From: Psilocybe cubensis
Taxonomy: Eukaryota
Direction of reading: 5' to 3'
Assembly: GCA_017499595.2 (NCBI GenBank)
Contig: CM039010.1
Coordinates: 1,488,001 to 1,552,000, forward strand
DNA length: 64,000 nt
Shown here: positions 30,629 through 61,432 of the stretch, piece by piece
Layout of the letters: each line of letters starts with the position of its first letter
Numbering within the stretch: the stretch's first letter is position 1
Program-made: the position numbers and the translations under genes
Notes under the pieces: generated by a model
What the model saw: the letters and a program-made list of their open reading frames with translations, nothing else
Database searches by the model: none
What the model was told of the DNA's origin: nothing

Positions 30629-31269
30629 TGGATGTTGAGGCTCTGGTTTTTTTTGGGGGGGAGGGGGGGTTTTGGTTTTTGGGGGGTATGGTGGTGGTGG
30701 TGGTTCGGGTTCTGGTTTTTGTTTTTGGTTTTGCGCTTTCTGCTTTCTGATTTGTTTTCTGCTTTGTGTGTTCCTTTTTTCGTGTTTTGTATTTCTTTTG
30801 TTTTGTTTTGTGTTTTGGTTGGAGTTAGAGCACAGTAGACGGCCGAGAGCCGAGGGCGGAGGTGAAGATGAAGGCGAAGACGGATGGACGGATGGATGGA
30901 TGGATGGTAGAGGATGAAGGATAGGTTGTGATTAGATCATTTGACGTCTGATTCGATTTCGATTTTAGATCTGAGCTGAAGGACGGGATATGCCGGTGAT
31001 TACGTGATACGCTACAGTAAAGCCGCAATTGGCCAATCGCGACGCGCGTCGGGAGTTGGTCGAGGGGCCGAGTGCGCAGAAGACGCGTTGGGTTGGGTTG
31101 GGTATTTTGTGGAGATTAGAGTAGAAATTAGGTGTATTCTAGAAAGCATGAAAAATATTTGTGGGTATAGCTAAGAGTCCGCCCGACTACTATGAAAGCA
31201 CTTGTGATAGCGTGTAATGTACTATTACTATTACATTTATTATGGGTATATCGTACAAGGGCATAAGCA

Positions 31270-33484
31270 TCAAGATTCCAAAGCGTGTTTGCGCATTTTC
31301 AGTCAGAAGCCGACTGCCAGTGAGACAGCGATCAGCAATCAGCAACCATGTGTGCGCTTGTAAAGTAAAAAACGTATTCGTACCCAACAAACAAAGACTG
31401 AGCGATTCCTTGTCGAGTCTTCGAAGAAATCTCTATTCTCTTCAACCTCGCCGTAATCTTCCTCTCACGTCAGGATATCGCTGCATTCCTCGAAACCTCG
31501 TAGCGTCTGCACAATACAGGGGGGTGTCAGCCACAGCCACACCGGCAAAACAAAGCCAAAGCCAACGAAAGCAGCACTTGTGACTTACTGATTCTCGACA
31601 CCCACCCATCTCTGCGAAGATGCACCCCAGCGCGCAGTAATCTACGGGGTAGGTGTACCTCGTACCCCCTCATGCGGATCTTCTCAGGCGCCATGTATCT
31701 GTATCCGCGCGTGCCCACTGCCGCCTGCGCGCGAGGCGTACACCGTGTCACGGTGCGTCGTGGATGTACGGCACTTGAGCTAGCTCGACTCGAGGGAGCT
31801 TGATTGTGGACGTGGCCGTGATTGTGCCGCAGCGTGCGCAGGACGTGTGCGGGCTTCAGGTCGCTGTGGATTACTTGGAGAGTCTTGAAGCCTGTGGGTT
31901 GGGTGTATGGTGAGTATAACAAGGAGCGGATGGCGGGAAACGGGGAAAGGAGGAGATTCAGAACGAACGTACGATTTTGGCGATCATGGTATGATGCGAT
32001 GGGTCTCCGATATCGCGACTCGGCTGTATCGTGTGCAGTGGGAGGCTATCTAGCACATCGACCTGATCCGTCTATATCAACGGCTACGATGATATGGCGG
32101 AAACGCCTCAGCCTACCCGCGCTCATTGAGCGTGCGGTGTCCGAGATGGCGATGGATCACACTTGCTCCATGCGCGCGGTCCCGATGTCCGACCCGGTAT
32201 CGCGCACCTTGCGCACGATGAGTCCTTTTCTTCAGAACTCTCGGACGTCCTTGAATCCCTGGATTGGTGGGGGGTGTCCCTCCCGTGTTCGACGCCGCGT
32301 GTGGGGGGGGGGGGGCAAGATACTCTCACACCCCGCTCGATGCGCGTTGAGGAGGTTAAGGAGTTCGTCCTTTTCTCTGCACGCGAAACGCGGAAAAGTC
32401 AATCTTCATCACAATACCATCTTTGACATCCGGCTTAGCAACACCATGCCTACACAAAAATAATTCATCAAGTGATCCATAGTGTGCACATACGAGCAGA
32501 TTACGCACTCTTTGATAAGATGCCTTCTGAGGGTGACAGTATTGCCTGGCTTGAAGCATCGGGCGCAAGCCAGACCTTCGTAATCGGCCGCTGCACGCCT
32601 GAGTTCTTCTTCCTCGGTCAGCCGGGCCCTGATCGTCTCTGCATCTCGCGCGTTCCACATCGATCGTCTGGGCTGCGAAAGACATAGAGCCGGTGCTCGA
32701 GCCGCAGATGCTGGCGGTGATGCATTTTCGGTAGCAATGCTTTGCTACCGTATGTAATGTTTTATGTATCCGCTTCGTCTGCGGCGGAGTATAGCTGTGT
32801 AGTCGTGGTATCGCTGTGGTTGCTGACTCTGTTTTTTGAATGGATCTGAGGTGGGATATAAATGTAGATCTAGGTGTGAAGGTGTTGGAAAGATGTGGGT
32901 GTGGGTGTGGGTGTGGGTGTGCGATGATGCGCGTTGGTGTATCCTGCTGCTGCTTCTGCTTCTGCTGTGGCACTGGTCTAAGGGAAGGAAATGACCTTGG
33001 AGGAGATGCCACGGGTGCTGGAGGGGAAAGCGAACAGCTTTGGTGTCAACGTCTCCTCAGCCTCGTCGGTTTATAACGTGCGTCAGCGGAGCTGTGTGTC
33101 GAGTGCGCGCTGGTGGGAACACACGCCCCAGATGCTGCTTGTGTGTGAAGAAGAGGAAGAAGAAGAAGGAGAGGAATAAGAATAGGAAGCGGTGGAACAT
33201 GCTGGGGTATTTGAACTGGGTCCTGAGTCTGATCCTGAGTCAAAGGCGTTTGTTTGGTTAAGATCTATTCCGAAATTAGAGGATGTCGGGCTCTTTAGTG
33301 TTAACAAAGGGTGGGGTTGTGAAGACGAGGTTGATTCCGCCGCCGACAATGAAGATGATGATACTGACGACGCGATTTGGCACGCGAACGACGACGGAGT
33401 CCGGACGACACTGGATAGTACTTGCGCCAGGGTCTGCCGCCCCGCGTACCTGTGGTACATTAAGTTACCGCCTGGCTGCGGCAT
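31270..33484 (-). pseudogene. Kinase copy K1, pseudogene
   Basis: Retains [59 protein letters not shown], but has stops, frameshifts, deletions (no DFG, no last exons) and a foreign insert. Confidence 0.88.
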
Positions 33485-34319
33485 GGCGCGAGCGTGTCTG
33501 CGCCACTCGGAAAGAGGGTTATAACAATGCAGTAAGCAAGGGGGCAATAAAGAAAGGGAAAGGGAAAGGGAAAAGAAAGGGTGCGGTGGCGCATTTGTCG
33601 GTGCACGGTGGGTGGTGATCGCGAAAAAGTTACAAAGAGGTTTATCGATTGCTGTTGTAGGTATATGCCACTGCGCTTGGAGTTCATTGTAAAGACGCTA
33701 TTTTTTGCACGGTTCCGTAGATTGATGCACGCGAGCAATGATGGCAAAGTCTTTGAACTCACAACAGATTCTACATAATAACTGTCATTGATTCATGTGA
33801 TACTTTACATTCTAGTGTGTCTACCTGGTTGATTTATTAATGCATGTATATCTTTGCTACTCAATGTGAATGAGCTTCTGGAATTGACCAATGTGTTCGT
33901 TGTAAACGGGAGCATTGCTTATTTTCTTTGCTTTATCTTCAATGCTTTGATTTCTGTTTTGTGTGGTTGTTTGATGTTTTGTTGTTCCCTTCTGTCATAG
34001 CTTTCGGCGAGAGTGGAGGGTGAAGTGGGAGAGGTGAATCGTATGGATGATAGAGAATTATTAGAACAGTGACGCGCATCCGCGCATCAAGCCTTGAGAT
34101 GTGGAGGCGCATCACCTTTGGGTTAGATGCTTGTGCTAAAATTGTTCAGTCAATGTAAAACTATATTTGTACGACATATTTGTGGATATATGTAGGATTT
34201 TAATGGGATGATAGGTTAGTCCGTCCGACTATTAAAGTATTACAATAGCATGTAGTGTACATTGTTTATGTTGCTATCGTACAAGGCTATGTGAAATGTC
34301 CCATCCACGAGTTTATAAT

Positions 34320-37122
34320 TTACCAGTGTGACATATATGGTCCGTATGGGTTGATCCAACGATACATGGTATCGTTCGTTGGATCCGATGTCTCGATTGG
34401 GTGTGTTGGTGTTGACTTGTCGCCCGGATTTGGCGAGTCAACGATAAGGAAGTTTTCTGGCTCTGTGTAATAGTAAAATATAAAAATGTTGTCAAGGTTA
34501 TGGTGTATGAGAAACGTACCCGTTTCGGCAATTTTGTCGAACTCGGAGAAATCACTGTGGAGGGTGTCACAATGTCAGGTTGAAAGTAAAGTGATGCCAA
34601 AAAATGATCAATTCTTACTCAGTGATTTTAAAGTAGGGGTGGGAGATGAGTTCCCAAAACCCGAAGCGTGTCTGTGGGTTGGGATCCAGGAGCTGGAGAC
34701 AGCGATCAACATGCAAGTTCGCGGTTTCACAAAAAAAATAGTGTTACCCCACAAACGAGACTGAGCGAATCTTCGTCGAGCTCTTGGTCCTCGAAGAAAG
34801 TCCTGCGCTCCTCGACGTCGCCGTAATCTTCCTCCCACGTCAGAATATCGCCACACTCCTCGAAACTTCGCAATGTCTACACAACACAGGGGGTGTCAGC
34901 CACACTGGCAAAACAAAGCCAAATCCAAATAAAGACCACATACCCGATCCTCGACTCCGGCCATCTCAGCGAAAATGCAACCCAGCGCCCAGTAATCTAC
35001 TGGGTAACTGTAGCCCCTTGTACGCACTTTTTCTGGCGCCATGTACCCGCGCGTCCCGACTGCGCGCGAAGCGTACACCGTGTCGCGGTGTAACGGCGCC
35101 ATGGTGGCCGTGCAATGGCTCAGCCCGAAGTCGGTGAGCTTGATGGTGCCGGTGGGAGTGAAGAGGATGTTGGCCGGTTTGAGGTCGTTGTGGATGACCC
35201 CAATGCTGTGTAGGGTGGCTAGCCCTGTAGCCTGCGGGAAAGTGGGTCGAGGTGTGGTGAGGAAATGAAGGAAATTACGACTAGGGGGGGAAACGTACAA
35301 TTTGCGCGATAATTCGGCGTGTATCGCGACGAGCCACGATCGTGCGTCTGCTATCGAGCACATCCGCGAGATCGGTGGCCATCAGTGGCTAGAAACGAAG
35401 AAAAATAGTAAGGCAGTTACTCGTGTTTTGACTATCGATCGCGCTTACCAACAGGAGACAGTGCTCCCCGCGGATGGTCAGCGTTGCGACCAAATTCATT
35501 ATGAACTCGAACCCAACTTTACCCTCCCTCGGCGCTTCCGCGATGCGCCTGTAGACTTCACACTCGCGTTTTAGCTGCGAGCGTGCGCGAAGGCCGTCGG
35601 CGAAGGCCACATCGCGGGTTTTGAAGCGCTTCAGCGCCCATATGCTGTCGGTTTTGAGGCCGACTTCGCCCCGACTCTCCGTCCCAACGCTGCTCGTTTG
35701 CCTGGCCTGGGGAGAGGGAGAGGTAGGGAGGGGGACCGAACGCACGGTCTCGATACGCGCCGTCCCATTGCCGGACCCGATAGCACACACCTTGCGCACT
35801 GCGATGCTGCGCCCTTTCAGCATCGCGAAGCCGTTTAGAGGCTTCGGCGTCTCCACTGGGTTGGATACGACATGCGGAGGGAGAACGCTCTCGTATCCGG
35901 CGAGATGCGCGTCGAGGAGGTTGATAAGCTCATCCCTCTTCTCCTCGTACCTCCGCCAAGATCCACTCGCCTCGGATGTCGGCTGACGGTGTGCTTGTGC
36001 TGATGGTACTCCAGCAGCATGTTTTTCGGTTGAGCTGGACGATTCCCTTCTCGGAGAGTGGATAGAACTCGCCCTACTTGGGGAAGAGGTTTGGTTTGCG
36101 CCTTCAGTATTGGCGGTCTGGTCTGGATGAGACACAGAGCCGGTGCCGAAGCCGCAGACGCTGTCGCTGGGGGAATTCGGTAGCAAGGAGTCGCTACCGT
36201 AAGAATGTTTGCCAACCAGCGCCTCGTCTGCGGCGGAGTATACCCGTGCATTGTTGCTGCCGTTGCTGCTGCTGTTGTCTCCATCTCTGGATGAATCTAA
36301 TTCGAAATCTGAAGCTGAATCTAGGTGTAAAGCTCGTGGAAAGGCGCGGAAGCTGGTACGCGGCGACGCGCGCTGGCGGATGCTGCTGTGTGTGTTGCAA
36401 CTGCTGCTGTTACCGCTAACTTTTTGACTTGCGTCGCGTCCTGACTTGGTTTTGTCGAGATGTGGTGACTCGAGCTTGCTGAGTCGTGGCTGTCTGGCGC
36501 TCTTGCTGTGGCTTTTGCTGTTACTGCTGCTGCTTCTTTTGCTGTGGCACTGGTCTATGGAAACAACCTTGGAGGATACGCCACCGACACTGGAAGGGAA
36601 GGTGAGCTGCTTTGGTGTCAGTGTCTCCTCAGGCTCGTCGGTGTAGAGCGTGCGTCCACAGAGCTGTGTGTCGAGTGCGCGCTGGCGGGAACACACGCCC
36701 CAGATGCTACTTGTGTGTGAAGAAGTGGAGGAAGGAGTGGAAGAGGTGGAACACGCTGGAGCATTTGAACTGGGTCCTGAGCCTGAGCCGGAGCCTGATC
36801 CTGAGTCAAAGGTGTTTGTCTGGCTAAGATCTATTCCGAAATTAGGAGAGGTAGGGCTGTTGATTGTCAACAAAGGGTATGATTTTGAAGACGAGGTGGA
36901 TGATGATGCCACCGCCGACGATGAAGATGACGAGGACGGGGACGACGCGAATGGGCACACGAATGAGGACGGAGTCGCGTACGACACTGTGGACAATACC
37001 TGCGCCAGCGTCTGCAGCCCAGCGTACTTGTGGTACAACGTGGCCCGGGCCTTGCGTGCAAGTGGCCCTGGCTGTGGTATGGCGCGAGGAGACTTGTGGC
37101 CTTGATCGATCTGCTGTGGCAT
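34320..37122 (-). CDS. Ser/Thr protein kinase K2 (non-RD, HND), 7 exons, long Ser-rich N-terminus
   Basis: [51 protein letters not shown]. All six introns splice in frame; ATG of MPQQ at 37122. Confidence 0.9.
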
Positions 37123-37958: not shown

Positions 37959-38337
37959 CTATTGAGCTGGACATCTTGAGTTGTCTGCTACCTTATCACG
38001 ACCGGTTTTCATGAAGGTCTCGTATAGACTTCATTAAATCCAATGTGGAAGAGTAATCCATATCCCCAGATTTGTCGATCTGTTCCTCTAACGACAGAAT
38101 TCCATACAACAAATTTTTAGCTAAATAGTCTAATGAGTCTTTTTGATCCTTTAACAATTAGGCAGGACATACGATGGACCTGATTAGGGGACCCTTGTCT
38201 TCGGTGGTAAGACTGCTTTCAATCTCATTCGAGGTGTGGGCAGGCGACTGTATTCTGGCTTCGAGTTGTGCGTTGACTACAGATCCTTTAGACTGTGAAC
38301 CTTTGCGCGCAGCTGGTTCCTTGTGAGAGTGTTTCAT
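37959..38337 (-). pseudogene. Small partner gene S2, frameshifted
   Basis: MKHSHKEPAARKGSQSK start, conserved intron, and YETFMKTGRDKVADNSRCPAQ* end, but frameshifts near 38190 and 38030. Confidence 0.8.
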
Positions 38338-38892: not shown

Positions 38893-41673
38893 CTAGGAGT
38901 GTAATACGTAAGGCCCGTAGGGATTGATCCAATGGTACATTGTATCGTTGGTCGGATCCGATGTTTCGATCGGATGTGCTGGTGTCAACTTCTCGCTGGG
39001 ACTTGGAGAGTCCACGACGATAAATCTTTCTGGATCTATGTGATAGTTTAGTATAATCAGGGTCATCGAGTTTTTGGTATGTGCAACGTACCCGTTTTGC
39101 CAATTTTGCCAAATTCGGAGACATCACTGTGAAAGGTGAATGTCAGATTGAACGTAGAGCACAGGAAAAGGATCGATGCTTACTCTTTTATCATGAAAAA
39201 CGGATGAGCGATGAGCTCCAGTATTCCGAAGCGCGTCTGGGGATTTGGGTCCAGAAGCTGGAGATCGAGCGATCAGCACATTTGCTCGTGGTTTCATAAA
39301 ACAACACATAATTACCCCACAGACCAGACTGAGGGAGTCCTCGTCGAGCTCTTGGTCCTCAAAGAATGCTCTGCGATCCTCAACACCACCGTAATCTTCC
39401 TCCCATGTCATGACATCGCTGCACTCATCAAAACTTCGCAGCATCTACATAGGGGTGTCAGCCACAATGGCAAAACAAAGCCAAATCCTAACAAAGACCA
39501 CATACCCGATCCTCCACGCCCACCATCTCCGCGAAAATACACCCCAGCGCCCAGTAGTCTACTGGGTAGCTATACCCCCTTGCAAGAACTTTCTCCGGTG
39601 CCATGTATCCGCGCGTCCCGACCGCGCGCGAGGAGTACACCGTATCACGGTGCAGCGGTTCCATAGTGGGCGTGCGGTAGCTGAGCCCGAAGTCGCCGAG
39701 CTTCACGGTGCCGCTTGGGGTGAACAGGACGTTGGCAGGCTTCAGGTCGCTATGTATGACGCCAATGCTATGTAGGGTGGCCAGCCCTATGGCCTGTGGA
39801 AGTGGTTGAGTATGTGGACAAGGTTGATGATGGAAAAGATGGAAAAGACAAGGGAGAGAAAACGTACGATCTGTGCGACAATTCGGCGGGTATCGCTACG
39901 AGGCAGAATGGTCCGCCTACTGTCTAGCACGTCTGCCAGATCAGTTGCCATCAATGGCTACAATGGCAAAGAAGAACAATCAGTAAGTTACTCGTGTCTT
40001 GACCGCCAGATATCGCTCGCCCTTACCATCAACAAACAATGCTCCCCGCGGAACGTCATTGCTGCCACCAACTCCATGACAAATTCAAATCCAACTTTGC
40101 CTACTTTTGGCGCCTCTGCGATGCGCCTGTAGACCTCGCACTCGCTTTTCAGTTGTGAGCGTGCGCGAAGGCCGTCCGCGAATGGTACATCACGCGTTCT
40201 GAAGCGCTTTAGCGCCCAGATGCTATCCTCCTTGAGACCGAACTCACTCTCCATCTCCTTCTCGACAGTTTTTGTTTGCCTGGCCGATGGAGAGATGGAC
40301 GCAGGTAAGGGTACCGAACGCACGGTCTCAATACGTGCGGTCCCATTACCGGAGCCGATATCGCGCACCTTGCGCACGGCGATGCTGTGCCCTTTCAGCA
40401 TCGCGAAGCCATGCAGAGGCTTCGGTGTCTGCTCTGCGTTTGATACGATATGTGGTGGGAGGATATTCTGGTACCCAACCAGGTGCGCGTCGAGGACATT
40501 GATAAACGCCTCCCTCTTCTCCGCGAACCTGCGTTTGAACCCTCCTGTCTGGGACGTCGGCTGGCGTTGCCGTTGTGTTTGTACTGGGGACAACTGAGCA
40601 GCGCGCCCTTCAATTGAAGAAGATAATGTTCTCCCCACAAATTGAACGGGTCTCGCACCGCTTGCGGAGGACCTGCCTTTCGCGCATTCCGCATTGATGG
40701 TTTGGCCAACGCGAGACACATAGCCGGTGCTGGAGCTGCAGGCGGACGCGCTGGCACTGGAGTATGTCGGTAGCAAAGAGTTGCTACCGTAAAAATTAAT
40801 CCTTTCCAACGCCTCGTCTGCGGTGGAGTATAGCCGTGCATTGTTGCTGTTGTTGTCGCTTCTGGTTCTGTTTCTAGATGAATCTCGTGGAAAGGTGCGG
40901 GTGCTGGTACGTGATGATGCGCCCTGTCCAATGTTGCTACTGCTGCTCTGTGGGTGGCGACTCCAACTAAAATTACTGCTGCAATCTTTTTGGCTTACGC
41001 GGCGTGTTGACTTGGTCTCGTTGGCGCGTGGTGATTCAGTCTTGCTGAGTCGTGACTGTTTAGTGCTTCTGTTGTGGCTTTTGCTGTTACTGCTACTGCT
41101 TCTTCTGCTGTGGCACTGGTCTGTGGAAATCACGTTGGAGGTTATGCCACCAGCACTGGAAGGGAAGGTGAGCTGCTTCGGAGTCAGTGTCTCCTCAGGC
41201 TCGTCGGTGTATAGCGTGTGGCCACGAAGCTGTGTGTCTAGTGCTCGCTGGCGGGAGCACACACCCCAGATGCTGCTTGTGTGAGAAGAAGAGGAAGAAG
41301 AAGAGGAAGAGGTGGAACACGCTGGAGCACTTGAACTGGGTCCTGAGCCTGAGCCTGAGCCTGAGTCAAAGGCGTTTGTCTGGCTAAGATCTATTCCGAA
41401 ATTAGGGGAGGTCGGGCTGTTGATTGTCAACAAAGGGTATGATTTTGAAGACGAGGTGGATGCCACCGCTGAAGATGAAGATGACGACGACGACGACGCG
41501 ATTAGGCACGCGAACGAGGACGGGGTCGCGGACGACACTGTAGACAATACCTGCGCCAGCGTCTGCAGCCCAGCGTACTTGTGGTACAACGAGTCCCGGG
41601 CCTCGAGTGCAAGTGGCCCTGGGTGTGGCATGGCGCGAGGAGACTTGTGGCCTTGATCGATCTGCTGTGGCAT
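38893..41673 (-). CDS. Ser/Thr protein kinase K3 (non-RD, HSD), 7 exons
   Basis: Same motifs and exon structure as K2; IHSDLKPANVL; ends [15 protein letters not shown]. Confidence 0.9.
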
Positions 41674-42670: not shown

Positions 42671-42984
42671 TTATTCAGTTGGAGAATCTGAGTTGCCTGC
42701 TACCTCATCACGACCAATTTTCAAGTATTCGTTCAACCAAGCCACCTTGGAGAAGTACTTCATTTCCTCCGAATCGTAGACCTGTTTGTCCAATAAAAGA
42801 ATTCGTGGGCATCTTCATTCAATACATATGCAGCTAAATAGTCTGATGTCTATTTTAAACCTTTTAAAAATTAGGTAGGACTTACGATGCCTGATTAGAC
42901 CCCTTTTCCTCTGTGACGAGACTGATTTTCCCCATTCAAGGTGTGGGCAAGCAGCCATTTATTAGTGTTAAGAGAGTATTTCAT
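42671..42984 (-). pseudogene. Small partner gene S3, deleted and frameshifted
   Basis: ATG AAA TAC TCT start, early TAA, conserved GTAAGT..TATTTAG intron, and LKIGRDEVAGNSDSPTE* end. Confidence 0.75.
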
Positions 42985-43959: not shown

Positions 43960-46701
43960 TTAGCAGTTTGATACGTAAGGCCCGTAGGGATTGATCCAAC
44001 GATACATGGTATCATTGGATGGATCCGATGTCTCGATCGGATATATCGGCATCGAGTGTATGTCCTTGGGACTAGGAGAGTCCACGACTAATAAATTTTC
44101 TGGCTCTGTGTGTGATGGCTTAGTATAAATATGTCGTCAAGTTTTTGGTATGTGGTACGTACCCATTTCGCCGATTTTTTCGAACTCGGAGAGATCACTG
44201 GGGAAGATGAATGTCAGATTGAATGAGGAGCTCTGGAAAAGAATAGATGATTACTTGTTTTTGAAATACGGATGAGCGACGAGCTCCAGTATTCCAAAGC
44301 GCGTCTGGGGATTTGGGTCCAGAAGCTGCAGACAGCGATTAGCATATATGCGCGATTGCACAAAAAAACATGTTCTTACCCCACAAACCAGACTGAGCGC
44401 GTCCTCATCGAGTTCTTGATCCTTGAAGAAGCTCCTGCGCTCCTCAACCTCACCGTAATCTTCGTCCCACGTCAACAGATCGCGACACTCCTCAAAGCTC
44501 CTCAGCATCTACACAAACAGGGGCCGTCAGCCACAAGCAAAACAAAGCCAAATCTAACGAGACCACCACTCACCCGATCCTCGACGCCCACCATCTCCGC
44601 GAATACGCACCCTAGCGCCCAGTAGTCGACGGGGTAGCTGTACCCCACCGCGCGGATCTTCTCTGGCGCCATGTACCCGCGCGTGCCGACAGCGCGCGCG
44701 GTGTACACCGTGTCTCGGTGTAGCGGCGCCAGGGTTGGGGTGCGGTAGCTCAGCCCGAAGTCGGCGAGCTTCACGGTGCCGCTGGGCGTGAAGAGGATGT
44801 TTGCGGGCTTGAGGTCGCTGTGGATGATGCCTATGCTGTGTAATGTGGCGAGTCCAGTGGCCTGTGGGAGAATGGGTTGAACGAGTGCGTGCGGCAAGTA
44901 AGGGATTGATGACGATGATGGAAAAGAGGAGGAGAAAACGTACGATTTGTGCGATTATTCTGCAGGTATCGCGACGAGGCATTACTGTGCGCCTGCTATC
45001 TAGCACATCTGCTAGATCGGTCGCCATCAGCGGCTGCGATGACACGGCGAAGAAGAAGAATGGTAAGTAACTCTGTCTTGTCAATGACCACCAGATAGCG
45101 CTTACCAAAAGCAAACAGTGTTCCCCGCGGAACGAGACCGTTGCCACCAACTCCATAATAAACTCAAGGCCGATTTTGCCCTCCCTCGGCGCCTCCGCGA
45201 TGCGCCTGTAGATTTCGCACTCACTTTTCAGCTGTGCGCGCGCGCGCACGCCGTCTGCGAATGGAACATTGCGGGTTTGGAAGCGCTTCAGCACCCAGAT
45301 GCTGTCGCGCTGCAGCCCCATCCCCGAGGCTGAGTGAGAGTCCAAGAGACAGGCGGCGCGCACGCTCTCGATGCGCGCGGTGCCATTTCCCGAGCCGATG
45401 GTGCGCACCTTGCGCACGGCAATGCTTTGCCCTTGCAGCTTTGAAAAACCGTGCAGAGGCAGAGGGGTCTCCGCTGCGCTCGACACGAGGTGGGGTGGGA
45501 GGATACTCTCGTATCCTGCAAGGTGCGCGTCGAGGAGATTCAGAAGCTCGTCCCTCTTCTCCTCGTACCTTCGTCCCGCCTCGGATGATGGTTGACGCTT
45601 TGCGTGTGCTGATGGTAATCGAGCAGCACGCTCTTCGAATGACGAGCATGATTTGCTCCAAAGACAATGGACAGACGAGCTGCGCTTCGCGCCGTCCGCG
45701 TTGATGGTCTGGTCTGGGCAAGACACAGAGCCGGTGCCCGAGCCACTGGCGCTGGCGCTGGGGGAAGTCGGTAGCAAAGAGTTGCTACCGTAAAAAAGTA
45801 TACCACTAAGCGCCTCGTTGGTGGCAGAGTGTAGCCGTGCATTGCTGCTGCTGCTGCTGCTGCTGCTGTTTGCGTATCTGGAAAAATCCAATTCGAAATC
45901 GAAATCTAGATCTAGGTGTAAAGCTTTTGGAAAAACGCGGGGGCTTGCGCGCTGGTGGTTTCTGCTGCTGCTGCTGATGATGCTGTGTGTCTTGTGGCAG
46001 TCGTCAAAGCTGCTGCTGCTGCTGCTAACCCTTTGGCTTGCGACACTTGTCGACTTGGTCTTTTCGGCGCGCGGTGACTCGGACCTGCTGAGTCGCTGCT
46101 CTCTGGTGCTTTTGCTGCGGCTTTTGGTGTTACTGCTCCTGCTTCTTCTGCTGTAGCATCGGTCTGTGGAAACAACTTTGGAGGATATGTCACCGGCACC
46201 GGAGGGGAAGGTAAGCTGTTTCGGCGTCGGCGTCGCCTCAGGCTCGTCGGTGTATAGCGTGCGTCCGCGGAGCTGTATGTCCTGTGCGCGTTGGCTAGAG
46301 CAGACACCCCATATACTAGTTGCGTCTGAATAAGAGGAAGAAGCTGAGCTTGAAGAGTACGCTGGGGAACTTGAGCTGGGGCCTGACTCTGACCCTGATG
46401 TTATGCTGAAGTCTGATTGTGAGCTTAGGGCGATTGTCTGGTTGAGATCTAGTCCGAAATTGGGGGAGATGGGGCTGTTGATTGTGAACGGTGGGTATGG
46501 ATTGGGCGATGCCGACGACGCGATCGGGGACGCGATCGAGGACGCGATCGAGAACGGAGTCGCGGATGACAAAGGGGACAGTAACTGCGCCAACGTCTCC
46601 AGTGCAGTGTACCGCATTGAGGCCCGGGCCTCGCGTGCAAGTGGCCTCGATTGTGGTACGGTGCAGGGGGTCCTGTGGCTTTGATCGATCTGCTGTGGCA
46701 T
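43960..46701 (-). CDS. Ser/Thr protein kinase K4 (non-RD, HSD), 7 exons
   Basis: [37 protein letters not shown]; ends [15 protein letters not shown]. Confidence 0.9.
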
Positions 46702-47697: not shown

Positions 47698-49345
47698 TTA
47701 AGTTTGACCATCGGAATTGTCTGCCACCTCATCGCGTCTGGTTTTCATAAATTTCTCGTAGCGGCTCTGCCAGTTGCAACGCTGAAAGTATTCCTTCATG
47801 TAAGCCACCTTGGAGTTGTGGTCCATATCCGGGCCCCGCAACTCGTATATCACTTCATCTAATACAACAATTCGTTCTGCTTCTTCATCCAAAGTATAAT
47901 TGGCTGAATGATTTGTTAGTTTTTTTTATGTTTGTATAAAAGAAATTAGACGAGGCTTACGATGATTTTGAATAGGTCCATTGTTGTCTGGGCCGATGAT
48001 GAAGGCAGTGTTGCTCATCGGCAAAAGTGACCAAGTCCCAAAATGCCTTTGCTGCCTTTTAAGGAAGGCCAATGATTCATGTGACATAATTATGTCACAC
48101 AAAACATTTGGGTAAAATTTGGAGGCACCCAAAACATTTAGAAGGCATTTGGAGGCTCCAAAAACATTTGTAGAGCCCAAAAGTTATTACTAAATATTTC
48201 ACATACTTACACTTATTTCTCAATTATTGGTTTGCTATAGAACTTAGAGTGAATGATTGATCATAAATAAAAAGAAAAAGAAAAGCTTGAGTTCAACTTG
48301 ACATGCACTCAAATGATTACCGGCCTTAGAGTGCGCAAAAAATGATTTTTCAATGTAAAAATTTATTCACAGTATCATCGCACAATGTCAATTTAAGGCA
48401 AAGTCCACCGTTTCTGTCTAGCCATCGACAAAGAGCCTCCCAGGTCTGATTACAAATTAAGTCGGAGATTGAATCAATGTTATGTGTATAATAACTCGAG
48501 ACATGCCCCGAATTCCTTTCTTTCCTCACTCTCATGTCTCCTGGTTCTGACAACACAATCTTCTGGTGTCCCATGCACATGACATAGGCCTGAAAGTTAA
48601 ACTCACAAGGTAAATCAATTATCCCCAACTGCCAGTGCAACCCAACTGACAATTTCTTTTATGTCTTTGCTCCTCCTTCGACTTTGATACATCTTTCCAT
48701 CAAGTATAGATTACAGTCTTACGGACATGCATGTTGAATTAATTGTGAGTATATGCGCATCAAATGCGCATACATTTTGCATTTTGCTTACCATGACTCA
48801 CTGTGACACATCCAGATCCAGATCTCAAATCACACGAGTTATTGTGACCTGGTCACACGGAGTCTCCCAGGGTCTGGTTGACCATTATCGTCATCTGTAC
48901 TCGTTTCTATGTACCCTCCATTGTAGTCAATCAAATTTTATTGTGTTAGTATTTCCAAAGTGTGTGATTATTGGGAAATGGCTGCTATAAATAAGAATAA
49001 ACAAGCTGTAGCATTGTGTGAACCTCAAATCTTTTTTGGGTCTCTCAAATGCAACTCAAATGTTGTCCAAATGTTTTTGGGTCTCCCAAATTTTACCGAA
49101 ATGATTTCATTAAATTTAGATTTTGATAAAACATTCATTCTAGTGAAGGATTTGTAGCCTTTCAAAATTGCGAGTCTCTACTTAGTCGATATAAAAGGCC
49201 ATTTGCGCCTTGGGGCCTTTGGGCGTCCCCAAATGCCTTAGTAAGGCATTTGGGGACTTGGTCACTTTTGCCGATGCTTTTCCCGGTCATTGATTAGGGT
49301 CAAGTAGTGGATTTGTGTTTGAGTCTTTAGGCTGGGCTCAGTATT
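47698..49345 (-). pseudogene. Small partner gene S4, split by a TIR element; the 3' part may still be translated (47698-48018)
   Basis: 3' part: TLDEEAERIVVLDE..MDHNSKVAYMKEYFQRCNWQSRYEKFMKT with intron 47904-47960. The 5' remnant AQPKDSNTNPLLDPNQ* lies beyond 49277. Confidence 0.8.
48016..49276. mobile_element. Non-autonomous DNA transposon, 1261 bp, 34-bp TIRs, 2-bp TSD (CACTA/CMC-like by structure)
   Basis: Left TIR CATCGGCAAAAGTGACCAAGTCCCAAAATGCCTT matches the right end with 1 mismatch. CT is duplicated at 48014-48015 and 49277-49278. Subterminal ccaaaacattt/ggcatttgg repeats and a 16-bp-arm palindrome at ~49225-49257. No transposase ORF seen. Confidence 0.85.
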
Positions 49346-50230: not shown

Positions 50231-50899
50231 TTACCACCTCCACCACAGAATGTACTCCCATGGAAATTTACACATACACGCCTCGTGGGACACATACAAT
50301 TGATCACTTATTCCCAAGACCCTTTGTTGGGATTTCGTCTGCGCGTACATCCGCCCGAGAAACCTCACCGGGATATTTGGTTCAATCCCACCCTCCAAGC
50401 CACTGAATCTACTCATGACTGAGCTGTTTGATGGGGCTTCGGCGTAAAATGTCTGCTGCGTGAATTCCTATGGAGCGTGGACCTAATTTCACTACTTAAC
50501 AGCATTCTGTCAACAGCTAATTTCATGCCCACTGTACGATAGCTAGAACCTGTTGAACCTGTACAAACTTTAGCATACAATCGATCTACTCCACCGAGTC
50601 TGCATTCAGACACGAGAATTGTGGCTGAAGTGCATCCGGGGGGAGGGGGGGATCATCCTCCGCACTTCCATCGGTCGCCTATGCCCTGGAGAGAAAGCGG
50701 ACTCCTAGCCGTCGCCCTCTTCATCACACAGAACGTGCTACCTGCCTATCTAAAAATACTAGGCGCAACACACCAAAAATGAGAACAAAATTTAAATGTC
50801 TGTGCAGAGGAAATGAGTGGTGTGTATACATTGTTGCTAGATCTTCCATGATTAATAATACAAATGCCAGAGAGAATCTGAGTCCGTCTAATGCAAATC

Positions 50900-53716
50900 T
50901 TAAACATTAGATTCTACATATAATCCATAAGGGTTGATCCACCGATACATAGTATCGTTTGATGGATCCGAGATGTCGATCGGATGCGTTGATTGTTTGT
51001 CCTTCGACGATTTGGGAGGGTCTACAACCATCCATCGATCCGACTCTGTGATTCGTTGTTCAGTACAAACATAGTAAAACTTTGGTGCTTGTGGAACGTA
51101 CCCATTTCACGGATTTTGTCAAACTCCGAGATATCACTGGAAATTTCATGATTGGATTAATAACGAATTATAGAGCACTGGAAAAAATTCGATGCTCACT
51201 CGTCTATCTTGAAGTACGGATGCACGAGGAGCTCTAGTATCCCAAAGCGTGTCTGTGGGCTGGGGTCCAGAAGCTGAAGACAACGATTAGAATGTGTGTG
51301 CATGGTTTCAGAAAAGAAAATGAGACTTGCCCCGCAAAGCAGACTAAGAGAATCTTCGTCAAGTCCCTGGTCCTTGAAGAATTTTTTCCTCTCCTCATGC
51401 TCGACGTAATCTTCATTCCACGTCAAAACATCACTGCTCTCCTCAAAACTCCGCAGAACCTACATTCAGGGAAGTCAGCCATCACACATCAAAACAAAGC
51501 CAAACCCAAACCAGAAAACCACTCACCCGCTCCTGCACCCCGACTATCTCCGCAAACACACACCCCAGCGCCCAGTAGTCTACGGGGTAGCTGTACCCAC
51601 CCGCGCATATCTTCTCAGGCGCCATGTACCCGCGCGTGCCTACCGCGCGCGTGGTGTATACAGAGTCTCTGTGCAGCGGCGCCAGCGCGGGCGTGCGGTG
51701 GCTCAGCCCGAAGTCGCCCAGCTTGACGATGCCGTTGGGCGAGAAGAGGATATTAGCGGGCTTGATATCGTTGTGGATTACCCCTATACTGTGGAGTGTG
51801 GCGAGCCCGGTAGCCTGTGGGTGAGGTGTGTGTCAGGGGTTGGTGATGGGGATGATGGCAAAAGGAGGAGAAAAACGTACGATTTGGGCGATGATGCGTC
51901 GGACGTCGTGACGCGGCAGCAGCGTACGCAGGTTGTCCAGTACATCGGCTAGGTCGGTGGCCATCAATGGCTGAAATGGCGAAAAGGAAGAAGAACGGTA
52001 AGTATCGATTTACACGGATATGTACAGTCTGAAAGCACTTGCACTTACCAACAGCAAGCAATGCTCCCCGTGGAATGTCGTCGTCGCAACCAACGACATA
52101 ATGAACTCGAAGCCGATTTTACCCTCCTTTGGTGCCTCCGCGATGCGCTTGTATACCTCGCATTCGCTCTTCAGCTGCGCGCGCGCCCGTAAACCATCCG
52201 CGAGCGGTACATCGCGCGTCTTGAAACGCTTGAGGACCCAGATGCTATCCTGCCTCAGCCCTATCTCCGACTCCATATCGACATCCGTCGCCTTGCTCGT
52301 TGCTGGCGGTGTGGCGTCGGATTCGGGGTCGGAGAGGGAGACGACGCGCACGGTCTCGATACGTGCGGTGCCGTTGCCTGCGCCGATTTTGCGCACCTGG
52401 CGCACGGCTATGCAGCGTCCTTGCAGCTGCGTGAAGCCGTGTAGCGGCAGCGGGGTCTGCGGTGCGTTTGATACAATGTGCGGGGGGAGAATGTTCTTGT
52501 ATCCAACGAGATGTGCGTTTAGGATGCGCACCAGATCCTCCGTCTCCGCGCACCCGCATTCTCTCACCTCGGATACCCGCCGCCGGTGTGTGTATTCTAC
52601 TGATAACACAGCAGGTTTCTCCGACGGTGAGGAATTCCTGAGAGACTTGGCGGTATCTGCCCTGCTGGGGCAGTAGCTGCCTTTCTCGTCGTCCGTGTTG
52701 ATGATATGATCAGGCGGTGACACAGATTCGGACCCACTGGTGCAAGATTGTGGAAGTGAGTCGCCGCCGTGTAAAGTTGCGCCGTCCAGCGCCTCGTCTG
52801 CAGTGGTGCGTACCCGCGCGTTGCCCATGCCATTGTTCTCCCAGTTGCTGGATAAATCGACATCGAGATTTGAGTCGACATCGATTTCCCCAGCTAAATA
52901 CTTGGGAGCTATGTGTGGGCTTGCGCGCGATGACGCGCGCTGGTGGATGTCGCTCGGGCGTGTACTGCGTTTGTAGTCGAAGCTGCCGCTGCTGTCTTTT
53001 TGACTTGTGTCGCTTGAAGACTTTGTCTTGTCGGCGCGTGGAGACTCGGGCCTGCTGAGTCGTGGCTGTCTGGTGCTTTTGCTTGTGGCTTTGCGTTTGA
53101 TTGCGCTAGTGTTTTCGCTTTTGCTGCGGCCTTTGGAATCGCACTTGGAGGTTTTGGCACCGGCACCGGCACTGGAAGGGAAGGCGTGCTGTTTTGGTGT
53201 CGGCGTCTCGTCTGGGTGGGCGGAATACAGCGTGCGGCCGCGGAGCTGTGTGTCGAGCGCGTGCTGGCGGGAGCAGACGCCCCATATGCTGCTCGCGTTG
53301 GAGGAGGAGGAGGAGGAAGAGGAAGAGGTGCACGCTGGGGCGCTTGGGCTGGGGACTGATCCTGAGCCCGATCGTGCGCTGGAGCTTGATTTTGATCTTG
53401 ATCGCGAGTTTGATCTTGAGCTCGAAGTACCTGTATGGTTTAGGTCTACTTTGAAATTCGGAGAGGTGGGGCTGTTGACCGTGAACAGAGGGTACGACTG
53501 GGCTGACGACGACGCCGACGCGGACGAGGATGACGAGGATGACGCGAACGACGCGAAAGACGCGAATGACACGAACGAGGAGGACGATAAATGTGTCAAC
53601 GTCTTCACCGCGGCATGTCTGTAGTGCAAGGACGGGGTCTTTCCCTCGCGTGCAAGTGGCCCCGGCTTGGGAATGGCACGGTGGGGCCAGTTGCTTTGAG
53701 TCGTCTGTTGTGGCAT
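50900..53716 (-). CDS. Ser/Thr protein kinase K5 (non-RD, HND), most divergent copy, 7 exons, one GC-AG intron
   Basis: IGAGNGTA, WVLKRF, IHNDIKPANIL, DFG, APE, DYWALG; ends [16 protein letters not shown]. Confidence 0.88.
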
Positions 53717-54623: not shown

Positions 54624-55133
54624 TCAATTGCCTAGGTGGCCTGTAAGATGGGCCCTCGTTGTTTTGATAAAGGTAACTACTATGTTACACCCACCATTCT
54701 GTTGTTTAGATTGACCATCGGGTTTGTCTGCTACCTCATCACGACCGGTTTTCATAAAAGTCTCGTATCGGCTCTGCCAGTTGCAACGCTGGAAGTATGC
54801 GTTCATGAAAGCCACCTTCGAGTCGTGGTGCATACCCCGCGAATCGTGTACCAGTTCATCTATCATAAGAATCCGTTCGGCTTCTTCTTCCAAAGTATAA
54901 TTGGCTGGATTATTTCTTAGTCTTTTAAGTTTGCAGATCAAAAAAATTAGAGGAGGCTTACGATGGGTTTGAACGGAATCCTTGTCTTCGGGGCCGATAG
55001 CGAAGACGAGATTACTTTGCCCATCTGTGGTGTAGGCAGGTAATTGCTGATTAGGGTGAAGTAGTTGGCTGCTGCTAGTGGTTTTAGGCTGGGACCCTTT
55101 GTGCGCTGCCGTTTTCTTCTGAGAATTCTTCAT
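54624..55133 (-). CDS. Small partner protein S5, unknown family, ~150 aa spliced
   Basis: ATG 55133, predicted intron 54905-54961, core YTLEEEAERILMIDE..MHHDSKVAFMNAYFQRCNWQSRYETFMKTGRDEVAD. Confidence 0.75.
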   Translation of the reverse strand: MKNSQKKTAAHKGSQPKTTSSSQLLHPNQQLPAYTTDGQSNLVFAIGPEDKDSVQTHRKPPLIFLICKLKRLRNNPANYTLEEEAERILMIDELVHDSRGMHHDSKVAFMNAYFQRCNWQSRYETFMKTGRDEVADKPDGQSKQQNGGCNIVVTFIKTTRAHLTGHLGN

Positions 55134-55215
55134 GTAACCCAATTTTTAATTTGAGAAGATAAAGAGATTGTACAAAATAAAAAGACGTGGAGAGTTTTAT
55201 AGCTGTAGCCCGTAT

Positions 55216-56290: not shown

Positions 56291-56765
56291 CAAAAATAAA
56301 ATTTCCCGTCCCATTGGTGGCCTTGGTGGACTCGTTATGTCTCATCAAGGCCATCCTCAATCTTTGAACTGAATTAAAAAATCTGGAATGAGCCATCAGA
56401 CTCTTGGATACAGGTTTGGCCAATGTACATACGTAAGAGCAAAGATTGAATTGTAAATTCGACCTTTGGTCGGAATAAGCCTGCTTGGAAAATCAACTTG
56501 AAGTCGAAATAGTAGATTCAATTTCGTAAACGCTTCAGCTTCGAAAACCCTAAAAAAAATTGGTTTGCCCTTGGATCTAACCCTTCTTATGCATTTTAAA
56601 ATCCTTCTTTCAATTTGAAAGCTGAGCACTAAATGTTATCGCTTGTCCATGGTCCCTATAAACACATTGTGATGGCGTTTAATGTACATAAATTTTGGTT
56701 TATCATACAAGAAAATAATACAATAGAAATTCCGAGTCGTTACGCGTCTAATGCAGACATAAAAA

Positions 56766-59368
56766 TTAGCAATGAGACACATATGGACCGTAGGGATTGA
56801 TCCAACGATACATTGTATCGTTGGTTGGATCCGATGTTTCGATCGGATATGTCGGCGTCGACTTGTCGTCGGGATTTGAGGTGTCGACGACAAGGAACCT
56901 TTCTGGCTCTGTGTAATAGTTTAGTATAAAAATGTTGTCAATATTATACGTGGAACGTACCTGTTTGGCCGATCTTGTCGAACTCGGAGAATTCCCTGAG
57001 GAGGGAAGAATGTCAGGTTGAATGTAAACTGGTGACAAAGGATTGAAACTTACTCGTCGATCTTAAAGTATGGATGAGCAATAAGCTCCAATATCCCAAA
57101 ACGTGTCTGGGGATTTGGGTCTAGCAGCTGAAGACAGTGATCAGCACATAGGCGCGCGGTTTCGCAAAAAACAAAATATTACCCCACAAACAAGATCAAG
57201 AGAGTCTTCATCGAGCTCCTGTTCCTCGAAAAAGTTTCTCCTCTCCTCAACGTCGCCATAATCCTCCTCCCACGTCAAAATGTCCCTGAACTCCTCAAAA
57301 CTCCTCAACACCTACACAGACAGGGGGGTCAGCCACATCAAAACAAAGCCAAATCCCAACAAAACCACACTCACTCGATCCTCCATGCCCACCATCTCCG
57401 CGAATACACACCCTAGCGCCCAGTAATCCACAGGGTAACTGTACCCACCCACGCGGACCTTCTCGGGCGCCATGTACCCGCGCGTGCCCACTGCGCGTGA
57501 GGCGTACACCGTGTCTCGGTGCAGCGGCGCCATTGTAGGTGTTCGGTGGCTCAGCCCGAAGTCGCCGAGCTTGACGGTGCCGGAGGGGGTGAAGAGAATG
57601 TTTGCGGGCTTCAAATCACTGTGGATGACGCCGATGCTATGCAGGGTGGCCAGCCCTGTTGCCTGTGGGTTAAATGTGTGGTGAGTAAAGGATTGATCTT
57701 GGAAATGATGGAAAAGAGGAGGTGAAAACGTACAATTTGTGCAATTATGCGACGGGTATCGCGACGAGCCAATATCGTCTGTCTGCTATAGAGAACGTCC
57801 GCCAGATCTGTGGCCATCAGAGGCTAGATACAAAGAAAAATAGTAAGTGAGCTACCCGCGTCTTGATCATCGATTGTGCTTACCAATAGGAGACAGTGCT
57901 CCCCGCGGAAGGTCATCGTTGCCACCAATTCCATAACGAATTCAAACCCGACCTTTCCCTCCCTCGGCGCCTCCGCGATGCGCCTATACACCTCGCATTC
58001 GTTCTTTAGTTGCGAGCGCGCTCGTAGGCCGTCCGCAAAGGGCACGTCACGGGTTTTGAAGCGCTTCAGCGCCCAAATGGTGTCGTTTTCCAGACCTATT
58101 GCAGATCTGGACGCGGAAATGGATACAGAGCGCACGGTCTCAATGCGCGCAGTACCGTTTCCAGACCCGATGTCGCGCACCTTGCGCACGGCGATGCTTT
58201 GTCCTTTGAGCATGGTGAAGCCATTCAGCGGCTTTGGCGACTCCGCTGCATGCGACACAACATGCGGGGGCAGGACACTCCCATACCCAGCGAGATGGGC
58301 GTCGAGCAGGCTTATCAATTCGTCCCTCTTCTCCTCACACCTGCGATGAAACCTCTTCGTCTCAGAGGAGCTTCTCTTTGCGCCTTGAGTGTGGATGGTC
58401 TGGTCCGGACGAGACTCAGAGCTGGTACCCGAGCCGCAGGCGCTGTCGTTGGGGAAAGTCGGTAGCAACTCCTTGCTACCGTAGAAATTTTTACCATCCA
58501 GCGCCTCGTCTGCGGCGGAGTATGCCCGTACATTGCTGTTGCTGTTGCTGCTATCTCCATTTCTGGAGGAATCTATTTCAAAGTCCAAAGTTAAATCTAG
58601 GTGTAAAGCTTGTGGAAAGGCGCGGGTGCTGGTACGCGATGATGCGTGCTGGCGGATGCTGCTGTTAACGTTTTGGCTTGCGTCGCGTGTTGGCTTGGTC
58701 TTGTCGGCGCTCGATGACTCAGACCTGCTGAGTCGTGGCTGTCTGGTGCACTTGCTGTGGCTTTTTCTGTTACTGCTGCTGCTTCTTTTGCTGTGGCTCT
58801 GGTCTATGGAAACAACCTTGGAGGACACGCCACCGACACTGGAAGGGAAGGTGGGCTGCTTCGGTGTCAGTGTCTCCTCAGGCTCGTCGGTATATAGCGT
58901 GCGTCCACGGAGCTGTGTGTCGAGTGCGCGCTGGCGGGAGCACACACCCCAGATGCTGCTGGTGTGTGAAGAAGAGGAAGAGGTGGAGCACGCTGGAGCA
59001 CTTGAGCTGGGTCCTGAGCCCGAGCCTAATGCACTGCTGGAGCCTGATCCCGAGCCAAAGGTGTTTGTCTGGTTAAGATCTAGTCCGAAATTAGGGGATG
59101 TGGGGCTGTTGATTGTCAATAGAGAGTATGTTTTTGACGACGACGAGGTTGATGCCACCGCCAACGATGAAGATGACGATAACGACGCGATCGCGGACGC
59201 GAACGAGGATGCGAAAAAGGACGGTGTCGCGGACGTCGACAATACCTGCGCTAGCGTCTGCTTCCCTGGGTACCTGTGGTGCAACGAGGCCCGGGTCTTT
59301 CGTGCGAGTGGCCCTGGCTGTGGCATGGCGCGAGGAGGCCTGTGGCATTGATCGGTCTGCTGTGGCAT
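56766..59368 (-). CDS. Ser/Thr protein kinase K6 (non-RD, HSD), 7 exons
   Basis: [37 protein letters not shown]; ends [15 protein letters not shown]. Confidence 0.9.
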
Positions 59369-60304
59369 TGCGATGAGGGTGGATATGTAGGTAATAAAAA
59401 CGCGTCTGGTCGGGTGTTTTCTGTCTCGTGAGCGTGTAAGCGCCACTCGGCAAGATGGTTATGACAATGCGGTAGGGAGGGGGTCAGTAGAGAAAGAGGA
59501 AGAGGAAGGGTGAATTAGCGCGTTTGTCGCTGCGCGGTGGGTGGTGATCGCGAAAAGGTTTATCGATCGCTGGTGTAGGTATATGCCACAGCGCTTGGGC
59601 CTTTGGTATGGCAGTACCGTGTGTAAGCCGCTGTTTTTGGGAAGGAGAAAGCTATCTCTGATCTTATCAGTCTACCTCTTGGTGCTGGTGTCGACGCTGT
59701 GCCACAGCACGGTGTTCGGGGTATGGATTGTCTTTTATCTCAAAGGGGGATGCTTTTTCTGCGCTATACAAGTGGATGGTAATGATTATGGAGATGTTGG
59801 GTCACTTGAAATAATATTTTATTGCATCCGTTCGTCCAATCATCCACAGATGTCTCTATTAGGCAGGTAAGGTCTTTACCTTTGGCTTCGTTTGATTTCG
59901 AAAGCTGTAAAAATCACTGAAGCTTATGGTAAAGACACCATTCTCTGCGCTGTTTGGTGGTCCAATCCCCTGGAACTTCGATGGGCAAGATCGGTTAATT
60001 AATGGCAGTATGTACCTTTGACATCCAATGTGAATGAGCTGTCAGAATTGGCCAGTTTGTTCGTTGTAAAACCAGCTATTCTTACTTGATTAGCTTGACT
60101 TTCAATGTTCAATGCTTACTGTTTCATGGGATTTCTGGAGCTTCTTACCCTGGTTACATTGTCGAATATTCTGTTTGAGTTTATCACTTATCTAGATGGT
60201 TTGTAACATAATCGCTTCACCGTTGCTGTTTTTATGGCAGGACATTGCTATTGATTCAAAAGGGATGCAAAGAGGCTAAGTAGATCACTGCGTCCACCAG
60301 CATG

Positions 60305-60733
60305 CTATTTGGCTGGACATTCGGAGTTGTCTGCTACTTCCTCACAACCGCTTTTCATGAAGATTTCGTACCGACTTTGCCACTTGCTTTGCTGGAAAAA
60401 TTCGTTCATTAAAGCGACCTTGGTGTTGTGATCCATATCCCCCGAATCATGGATCTGTTCATCTAGCAAAAGAATACGTTCAGCTTCTTCATCCAACGAG
60501 TATGAAGCTAAATAGTCTTGTGAATCTTTTGATTTAATCAAACTTGGGTAGGGCGTACGATGGTTTTGGGTAGATTCCTTGTATTTGGAGTCAATGACGG
60601 TTCCGGGATTACTTTGGCCATTCGAGGTGTTGGTAGCTGGTTGTTTATCATTTTCGCCAACTGGTGGACTACCTGCAGAGTTTTTAGACTGTGCGCCTTT
60701 GCGGGCAGCTGCTTTCTTCTGAGAGTGTTTCAT
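60305..60733 (-). CDS. Small partner protein S6, unknown family, ~125 aa spliced
   Basis: ATG 60733, predicted intron 60508-60558, core YSLDEEAERILLLDE..MDHNTKVALMNEFFQQSKWQSRYEIFMKSGCEEVAD. Confidence 0.78.
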   Translation of the reverse strand: MKHSQKKAAARKGAQSKNSAGSPPVGENDKQPATNTSNGQSNPGTVIDSKYKESTQNHRTPYPSLIKSKDSQDYLASYSLDEEAERILLLDEQIHDSGDMDHNTKVALMNEFFQQSKWQSRYEIFMKSGCEEVADNSECPAK

Positions 60734-61432
60734 CTGAAGGCGAGTTTTAGGCTTTCGAGGGGATAAGATGATTGCAGAATTAAACAGTTGAGGGGCGTTC
60801 TTATATGTACAGCTAGAACAGTGGCCCGTTTATTTGAAAGTAGGTTGAAGTGCCTGGATATGGAGGCCCGTTCATTGTCATTGGTGGCTAGGGTGGTATC
60901 TTTGTCATCCCGACTCAATCTTCGAATCAAGGCACACAATAATGAAATGGCTGTTAGTTGAAATACTAACGACTACTTTTGCGCGATATTTGGGCCAACA
61001 ATGCTATATACCTACTATTTACTAAGGTATGGATCTGTCGTTCAACCAGCTTCGACCTTCCATTGGAGTAAGGCACCTTGTAAAAAGAGGCCAATCAAAA
61101 AGTTCGGTTTTATAGGCTTCAGGATTCTGAAGAAAAATTACTTTTCTCCAGTTCTCTAGTCTTGAGTATTTTCCAGGTTTCAAGGCTGAGTTCTGAGCAT
61201 CATCCCGTGCGACCTGTCTTTGAAGTTTGACCGTGGGACAGCGGCAAGCCCCTTTTACATGTGTCGGCGCGTCAAGAGTAACGTGACCACTTATTCGTGT
61301 AACGTGTCACCCCAAGCCTTTGTCGCTACGTTTCCCCAACCCTACAATTTACCAGCTTACACCCATATCCTCCTCTCAACAACTTGAACGAACAGAGAGA
61401 AAACTTGAGGGTCAAGGGTACATCTGCTCACT

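Follow-up and report, generated by a model that had tools for sequence, protein, structure and literature searches.

A probable birth-and-death tandem array of non-RD protein kinases with a co-amplified orphan gene in Psilocybe cubensis

A 64,000-nucleotide stretch of Psilocybe cubensis DNA (contig CM039010.1, positions 1,488,001 to 1,552,000 of the forward strand; hereafter the window, with positions counted from its first letter) carries, between URM1 and SEC11, six tandem copies of a protein kinase gene (K1–K6, one per unit) and a small second gene, S, that was duplicated along with the kinase. A two-gene segment of about 4.5–5 kb has probably undergone tandem birth-and-death expansion in P. 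cubensis, which would amount to ordinary gene-family growth. The kind is known, a lineage-specific tandem kinase expansion; its modestly unusual traits are a family-wide switch to the non-RD state (loss of the Arg in front of the catalytic Asp) and the co-amplification of an orphan gene. A literature search found no paper on this locus.

The array is marked by direct-repeat families of five to six copies each, spaced 3.4–7.0 kb apart, which extend over approximately 31.4–59.4 kb, and its genes and long reading frames all lie on the minus strand. A tblastn search with the K2 model as query recovers six kinase copies. A preliminary description of this DNA, made from its letters, had placed a tandem array between URM1 and SEC11, and the repeat families, the six tblastn copies and the two flanks (recognized by Pfam PF09138 and PDB entry 7p2p) bear this out. 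It had also proposed six two-gene units; the number six holds for the kinase, but only five of the six units contain an S-like segment, and both genes are intact in just two.

The K2 model was built by hand from the sequence and its seven exons were projected onto the other copies via a DNA alignment. Five of the six copies (K2–K6) have open seven-exon frames of 747–810 amino acids (aa) with conserved GT/AG borders, the exception being a GC donor at intron 4 of K5. These are, all on the minus strand, K2 (34320..37122; 810 aa in the model, 807 aa as annotated, P0002), K3 (38893..41673; 801 aa in the model, annotated variant P0003), K4 (43960..46701; 784 aa in the model, annotated variants P0005 and P0006), K5 (50900..53716; 809 aa, P0007), which is the most diverged copy, and K6 (56766..59368; 747 aa, identical to P0004). 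The source proteins are annotated P. cubensis records that are letter-identical to translations of the window (JR316_0013223, here P0001, 125 aa; P0002–P0007 for the kinases). Splice choices are the only difference between the K2, K3 and K4 models and their annotated records, and the K5 model equals P0007 save for one terminal residue. K1 (approximately 31190..33514, minus strand) is a decayed relic with stops and frameshifts: its fragments lie in differing frames, the equivalent of exon 1 has at least eight stops in each frame, exons 6 and 7 are missing and remnant exon-4 and exon-5 peptides appear in the list of open reading frames (ORFs).

K6, at least, is transcribed and its transcript spliced. 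Two shallow contig sets from one study, X4 and X5, were guessed to be RNA; in X4 the joints 56908/56961, 56994/57053 and 57308/57372 match introns 6, 5 and 3 of K6 exactly and have minus-strand GT..AG ends (CT..AC as read on the plus strand), which confirms three of its six introns. Short RNA-like contigs are present on K5 as well. On the Ser-rich exon 1 of K4 and K6, the cover in X4 and X5 is loose at either end and probably reflects low-complexity cross-matches.

K2–K6 share one architecture: a disordered, Ser-rich N-terminus of about 400 aa, a glycine loop reading GSGNGTA (GAGNGTA in K5) with a variable insert after it, and a C-terminal tail in which NDTMY(R/H)WINPYG is conserved. In place of HRD, K3, K4 and K6 have HSD in the catalytic loop, and K2 and K5 have HND; the Arg of RD kinases is thus missing in all five intact copies. 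K6 matches the Pfam Pkinase family [PF00069, 136.3 bits, E 1.6e-39, cut-off 31.7, residues 427–685], with similar results for K5 and K2, and exon 3 alone reaches E 7.6e-28 against the same family; the N-terminal approximately 400 residues match no Pfam family. In a seven-sequence alignment that includes distant relatives, D541, K543, N546, D559, F560, G561 and E457 are invariant, and both the β3 Lys of (A/V)LKRF and the motif GTRGYMAPE occur in all five intact copies. We regard the kinase as a divergent, lineage-restricted, eukaryotic-type Ser/Thr protein kinase with a complete catalytic core, predicted from its sequence to be active; the change from HRD to HSD or HND throughout the family, with the catalytic residues kept, is a modestly unusual trait. 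The seven-exon structure, the Ser-rich N-terminus, the unusual glycine loop, the HSD/HND loop and the conserved tail had all been named in the preliminary description and recur in our models, the exon structure being confirmed for K2–K6 by the projected borders and the annotated proteins; the pseudogenization it reported among the copies is seen, for the kinase, in K1.

The kinase copies are old and have been retained as enzymes, because in the kinase domain all ten pairs of K2–K6 have a ratio of non-synonymous to synonymous substitution (dN/dS) of 0.06–0.16 at a synonymous divergence (dS) of 0.86–1.76. The N-terminal region has a dN/dS of 0.41–0.54 and a dS of 0.30–0.88. The 250 bp that precede the kinase start codon are 84–90% identical among units 2, 3 and 6, and 57–70% identical to units 4 and 5. 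The low dS of the 5′ half, together with this pattern in the 5′ flank, suggests conversion tracts or a conserved promoter. A constraint on the composition of the Ser-rich region is an alternative source of the low N-terminal dS. The copies had previously been called diverged and mosaic; the divergence is plain from the dS values, and ‘mosaic’ is reasonable given the lower dS of the 5′ half and the identities in the 5′ flank.

S consists of two exons and an intron of 51–57 nt, the donor and acceptor sites of which (GT..AG) are conserved across five copies. In all three measurable units its end lies 907–996 bp upstream of the start codon of the kinase, on the same strand. Two copies are intact, both on the minus strand. 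S6 (60305..60733; 125 aa, intron 51 nt) is identical to the annotated hypothetical protein P0001 (JR316_0013223) and is the only copy ever predicted as a protein; S5 (54624..55133; 150 aa, intron 57 nt) is absent among the predicted proteins and reads through the stop position of the other copies, which is common to four of them. The remaining copies, also on the minus strand, are broken. S4 (47698..48015) is split by a transposon, which cuts off its 5′ end; exon 2 (47698–47903) and the intron are intact and are preceded by what is left of exon 1 at its 3′ side, and the sole in-frame ATG of S4 (48087) lies within the transposon. S2 (37959..38337) is a pseudogene with a 2-nt insertion in exon 1 that shifts the phase and a 29-nt deletion in exon 2. 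S3 (42671..42984) is a pseudogene that has lost about 64 aligned columns in exon 1 and 39 nt in exon 2 and has a stop before the donor. Unit 1 contains no S, so that the tally over six units is two intact, one transposon-split, two frameshifted or stopped and one absent. A block of about 60 nt past the S stop (37951–37990, 60290–60304 and equivalents) matches the coding part in its degree of conservation across the five copies and may be a 3′ untranslated region (UTR) or a regulatory element. The preliminary description had given every kinase a two-exon gene of about 125–150 aa, some 0.9–1 kb upstream on the same strand; the geometry and the sizes of S5 and S6 stand, but three of the five copies are broken and unit 1 lacks the gene. 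For the small gene, the pseudogenization that it had noted among the copies is found in S2 and S3.

The element in S4 is a non-autonomous DNA transposon of 1.26 kb (48016..49276) with 34-bp inverted repeats at 48016–48049 and 49243–49276 and with subterminal repeats, which substantiates the transposon insertion reported earlier; the insert is missing from the contigs of another strain. By DNA depth it is multi-copy (176–326 versus about 57 nearby). Plus-strand RNA-like contigs over the transposon are spliced, with GT..AG joints at 48607/48708 and 48744/48816, but no frame of the spliced product is free of stops; the element may belong to a transcribed non-coding transposon family.

Strain differences were assessed with X1 and X2, two roughly genome-sized contig sets from one study that carry the same variants and were therefore counted as one comparison. 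The array is not monomorphic, and the differences are unevenly spread. The other strain shows a single difference in the 1561 bases of 59840–61400, and 80 differences and 17 gaps in the 2993 bases of 55804–58796. In K4 exon 1 it skips 853 bp (45654–46506, position 45653 being joined to 46507); as 853 is not divisible by three, K4 may be broken there, either a pseudogene or a differently built gene. A further 1298 bp (47977–49274), essentially the transposon, are skipped, and 49468–54779, which holds K5 and part of S5, has no cover at a likeness of at least 90%. Other-strain contigs also join 59179–59187, in the 5′ coding part of K6, to 41500–41505, the homologous position in K3, with 7–20 extra letters between; such a joint could come from a copy that is chimeric or converted there, or from the contig of a paralogue outside this stretch.

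In the mechanism that we propose, segmental tandem duplication would have copied a unit that by chance held two genes, with birth-and-death evolution thereafter. S would have been carried along simply by its position inside the duplicated segment and would now be in the course of loss from most units, whereas purifying selection would have preserved five kinases as functional signalling enzymes. Continued reshaping of the array by unequal crossing-over, local gene conversion and the insertion of transposons would explain why strains differ in its structure. The K proteins are expected to be active Ser/Thr kinases. With the HRD Arg lost, their activity would not depend on phosphorylation of the activation loop; control would more likely be exerted via the Ser-rich N-terminus, as a platform for phosphorylation and docking, and via the aromatic C-terminal tail. 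Expression or targets are probably divided among the paralogues, a pattern that a preprint describes in general for expanded Agaricomycete kinomes (bioRxiv 10.1101/349894).

The decisive comparison is between units with intact and broken S. The kinase domains of K2–K4, whose S copies are broken, are as constrained as those of K5 and K6, and an obligate one-to-one pair of the toxin-antidote type is therefore ruled out. The two genes also differ in history within the units, since exon 2 of S4 and S5 has a dS of 0.31 as against 1.07 for the kinase domains of K4 and K5, which again argues against a kinase-partner system. We infer that S and the kinase have no functional link. The turnover that had been claimed for the locus is supported: the copies are old and diverged, one kinase and three S copies are broken, a transposon has inserted and strain gaps are seen. 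The kinase-plus-partner system that had been proposed along with it is unsupported.

Several observations weigh against so plain an account. The constraint on exon 2 and the confident fold described below show S to be a real protein, or to have been one until recently, and a functional link would agree with its fixed position on the same strand as the kinase. The loss of the RD state and the presence/absence variation are in line with what recognition loci show, all of the kinases could be acted on in trans by S5 and S6, and the strain variation rests on the single X1/X2 comparison. Transcript evidence for S was not obtained either, the shallow X4 and X5 sets having no cover over S4, S5 and S6 and being uninformative on S expression.

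Whether S is a functional gene today bears directly on these points. It might instead be a decaying or proto-gene ORF, the conservation of which reflects shared ancestry or promoter and UTR elements, so that the locus is purely a kinase array. Three of five copies are broken and none exists in unit 1, exon 1 has no codon-position bias (p 0.51–0.80), the identity of exon 2 (67–84%) is only slightly above that of neighbouring intergenic DNA (60–75%), the conserved block runs on past the stop, S6 alone was ever predicted as a protein, and the ESM model of S is poor [predicted local distance difference test (pLDDT) 0.40]. However, exon 2 behaves as coding sequence: in pairs of S4, S5 and S6 its dN/dS is 0.10–0.46, with an excess of third-position substitutions in three of three pairs (p 0.0006, 0.009 and 0.045). 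The intron and the stop position are shared by five and four copies respectively, and AlphaFold, from an alignment of only three sequences, gives S6 helices at residues 63–79, 85–99 and 101–111 with a pLDDT of 86–91 over residues 61–111. The predicted protein has a disordered, basic N-terminal half and a C-terminal three-helix domain of about 50 aa. On balance we consider it doubtful that S is without function today.

S is a taxonomically restricted orphan among the predicted proteins and metagenome contigs searched. It matches no family in Pfam; against 5.8 billion predicted proteins it recovers its own record only (one of 12 candidates), a three-sequence profile against 1.84 billion representatives does the same (one match), and none of 184 pattern matches in metagenome contigs was confirmed with the profile. 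Foldseek with the S6 model against the PDB gives no match at E ≤0.001, the 48 weaker rows being generic helical hairpins, and the ESM Atlas yields no usable feature match for S, its structural rows all having a template-modelling (TM) score ≤0.37. The preliminary description could assign the gene to no family, and these searches agree with it. Two other identities were considered and rejected. BLASTP (E 1.8) and hhalign (probability 0.2%) show no likeness of S to the kinase, so that it is no kinase fragment. Basidiomycete lipopeptide pheromone precursors comprise tens of residues and end in a CaaX box; S proteins are 110–150 aa, the last four residues of S6 are C-P-A-K, the matching frame of the S2 relic reads C-P-A-Q, and S3, S4 and S5 have no Cys there.

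The reading put forward in the preliminary description, that linked kinase/partner pairs form an allorecognition, immunity or toxin-antidote system, would make the kinase and S a functional two-component module, with S as regulator, substrate, trigger or antidote (S5 and S6 possibly in trans) and the array serving non-self recognition, immunity or meiotic drive. Such a module would be in keeping with the uniform strand and distance of S, with the purifying selection on its exon 2 and its confidently predicted fold, with a non-RD state that is common to all five intact kinases while relatives in other genera are HRD, with strain variation that extends to the missing cover over unit 5, and with the confinement of the kinase family, among predicted proteins of P. 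cubensis, to this array. Three of the five intact and equally constrained kinases nevertheless adjoin a broken S, their domains are conservative rather than diversifying as is usual at recognition loci, and segmental duplication copies neighbouring genes together by default. Conserved adjacency of the two genes across Agaricomycetes had been envisaged as a test; S has no relative outside the locus, so conserved pairing is impossible to demonstrate at the protein level reached by our searches. Neutral evolution of the partner and an array monomorphic across strains had been named as observations that would count against the system; what was found is constraint on exon 2 of S and structural differences in one comparison with another strain. 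We judge the module very unlikely. A more specific version, in which S is a young helical protein, perhaps born de novo, and acts in trans as a modulator or substrate of the adjacent non-RD kinases at a Psilocybe-specific recognition or drive locus, is highly improbable and is offered as speculation. In that version the array varies in copy number, and strains with different sets of units (unit 5, for example) would be incompatible or show transmission bias.

Under birth-and-death expansion, the locus is a well-resolved example of mushroom kinome growth, in which a segment has been amplified, the kinases are constrained and a passenger gene is decaying, and on which conversion tracts, the insertion of a transposon and structural variation between strains have also left their mark. 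S, with its coding constraint and confident predicted helical fold, is a candidate for gene-birth studies.

The relatives of the kinase are distant. An N-lobe query against predicted proteins recovers only the P. cubensis copies (six of 570 candidates). With the catalytic region as query the next best matches, and the nearest relatives outside P. cubensis, are P0008 of Hypsizygus marmoreus (35% identity over 81% of the region) and P0009, a hypothetical protein of Panaeolus cyanescens (38% identity over 69%), with generic kinases further down. Both share the motifs VDYWALG, GLL-P-P-RFG and HPYF with the array kinases, and P0008 also has a WINPxG tail. However, P0008 and P0009 keep HRD, and their N-terminal regions are unrelated and the proteins shorter (546 and 604 aa). 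In metagenome contigs the kinase alignment gave 597 matches, 570 of which proved to be kinases; the 80 loci retained contain nothing that resembles S, the N-terminus or the tail and are therefore generic kinases.

The best PDB sequence matches are CMGC kinases, namely ERK1/MAPK3, ERK5 and CDK6 [E 6.6e-20 to about 1e-19, K6 residues 470–617], and the likeness spans the catalytic core only. In the HMMER alignment the TEY dual-phosphorylation site of ERK1 falls on S-R-A of K6, so that the T-x-Y of MAP kinases is lacking. The source name ‘SSN3’ of K5 rests on weak CMGC likeness, and both this name and ‘Cyclin-dependent kinase 1’ (P0008) are probably misleading for members of the family. FunK1 identity was rejected, as PF17667 scores 9.8 bits (E 0.39, cut-off 24.1) with K4 exon 3 only and the full-length proteins are unlisted at E ≤0.01. 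The closest match of the kinase model in the ESM Atlas is a Basidiomycota kinase cluster (TM 0.83); models of RSK, SGK, S6K and PKC come next (TM 0.74–0.75, residues 395–743). These models hint that the conserved tail may pack on the kinase as in AGC kinases. An AGC-type extension was not found as a Pfam Pkinase_C match in the kinases, and the full-length AlphaFold model of K6 from the seven-sequence alignment (mean pLDDT 32.5) is too poor to judge such a tail.

The array is flanked at its low-coordinate end by the single-copy gene URM1 [29910..30931, minus strand; PF09138, E 4.4e-18 and 5.4e-09] and at its high-coordinate end by an exon of SEC11, the catalytic subunit of signal peptidase [61724..62062, plus strand; PDB 7p2p_A, E 1.5e-24], on the side of which strongly covered RNA-like contigs begin at about 61325. 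A (GTAAGA)21 microsatellite at 30087–30212 separates the two coding blocks of URM1, the first of which contains a long Ser/Thr/Gly-rich low-complexity stretch. Further out, a minus-strand gene at 27612–28427 has an HIG_1_N (hypoxia-induced protein) domain (E 2.9e-16). The inter-unit ORFs at 48350–48658, 48688–48990, 49720–50082, 50048–50422 and 55286–55741 match no Pfam family.

The array was compared with several known systems. In toxin-antidote or killer-protector pairs each toxic component needs a functional cognate protector; no intact S adjoins K2, K3 or K4, although S5 or S6 might conceivably protect in trans. Fungal allorecognition loci of the het/vic type combine presence/absence polymorphism with diversifying or balancing selection; here structural differences are seen in one strain, and the kinase domains of the paralogues have the low dN/dS given above. 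Non-RD kinases reportedly act in plant and animal innate immunity, and those kinases have lost the same Arg before the catalytic Asp as have the array kinases; unlike them, the array kinases have no receptor or death-domain architecture. No paper on fungal non-RD kinases was among the best 10 of 38 matches listed, which concern plants or a crab. The array most closely resembles the kinome expansions of Agaricomycetes, whose kinomes are described as enlarged in the preprint cited above (bioRxiv 10.1101/349894). Known lineage-specific expansions of this kind, with FunK1, Agak1 and TKL kinases and with signalling gene families duplicated in tandem, likewise involve eukaryotic-type kinases that are restricted to mushroom-forming fungi and locally amplified, with old, diverged copies under purifying selection. 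The P. cubensis family differs from them in that a single array holds all of its copies, that all of the intact copies are non-RD and that an orphan gene has been duplicated with them.

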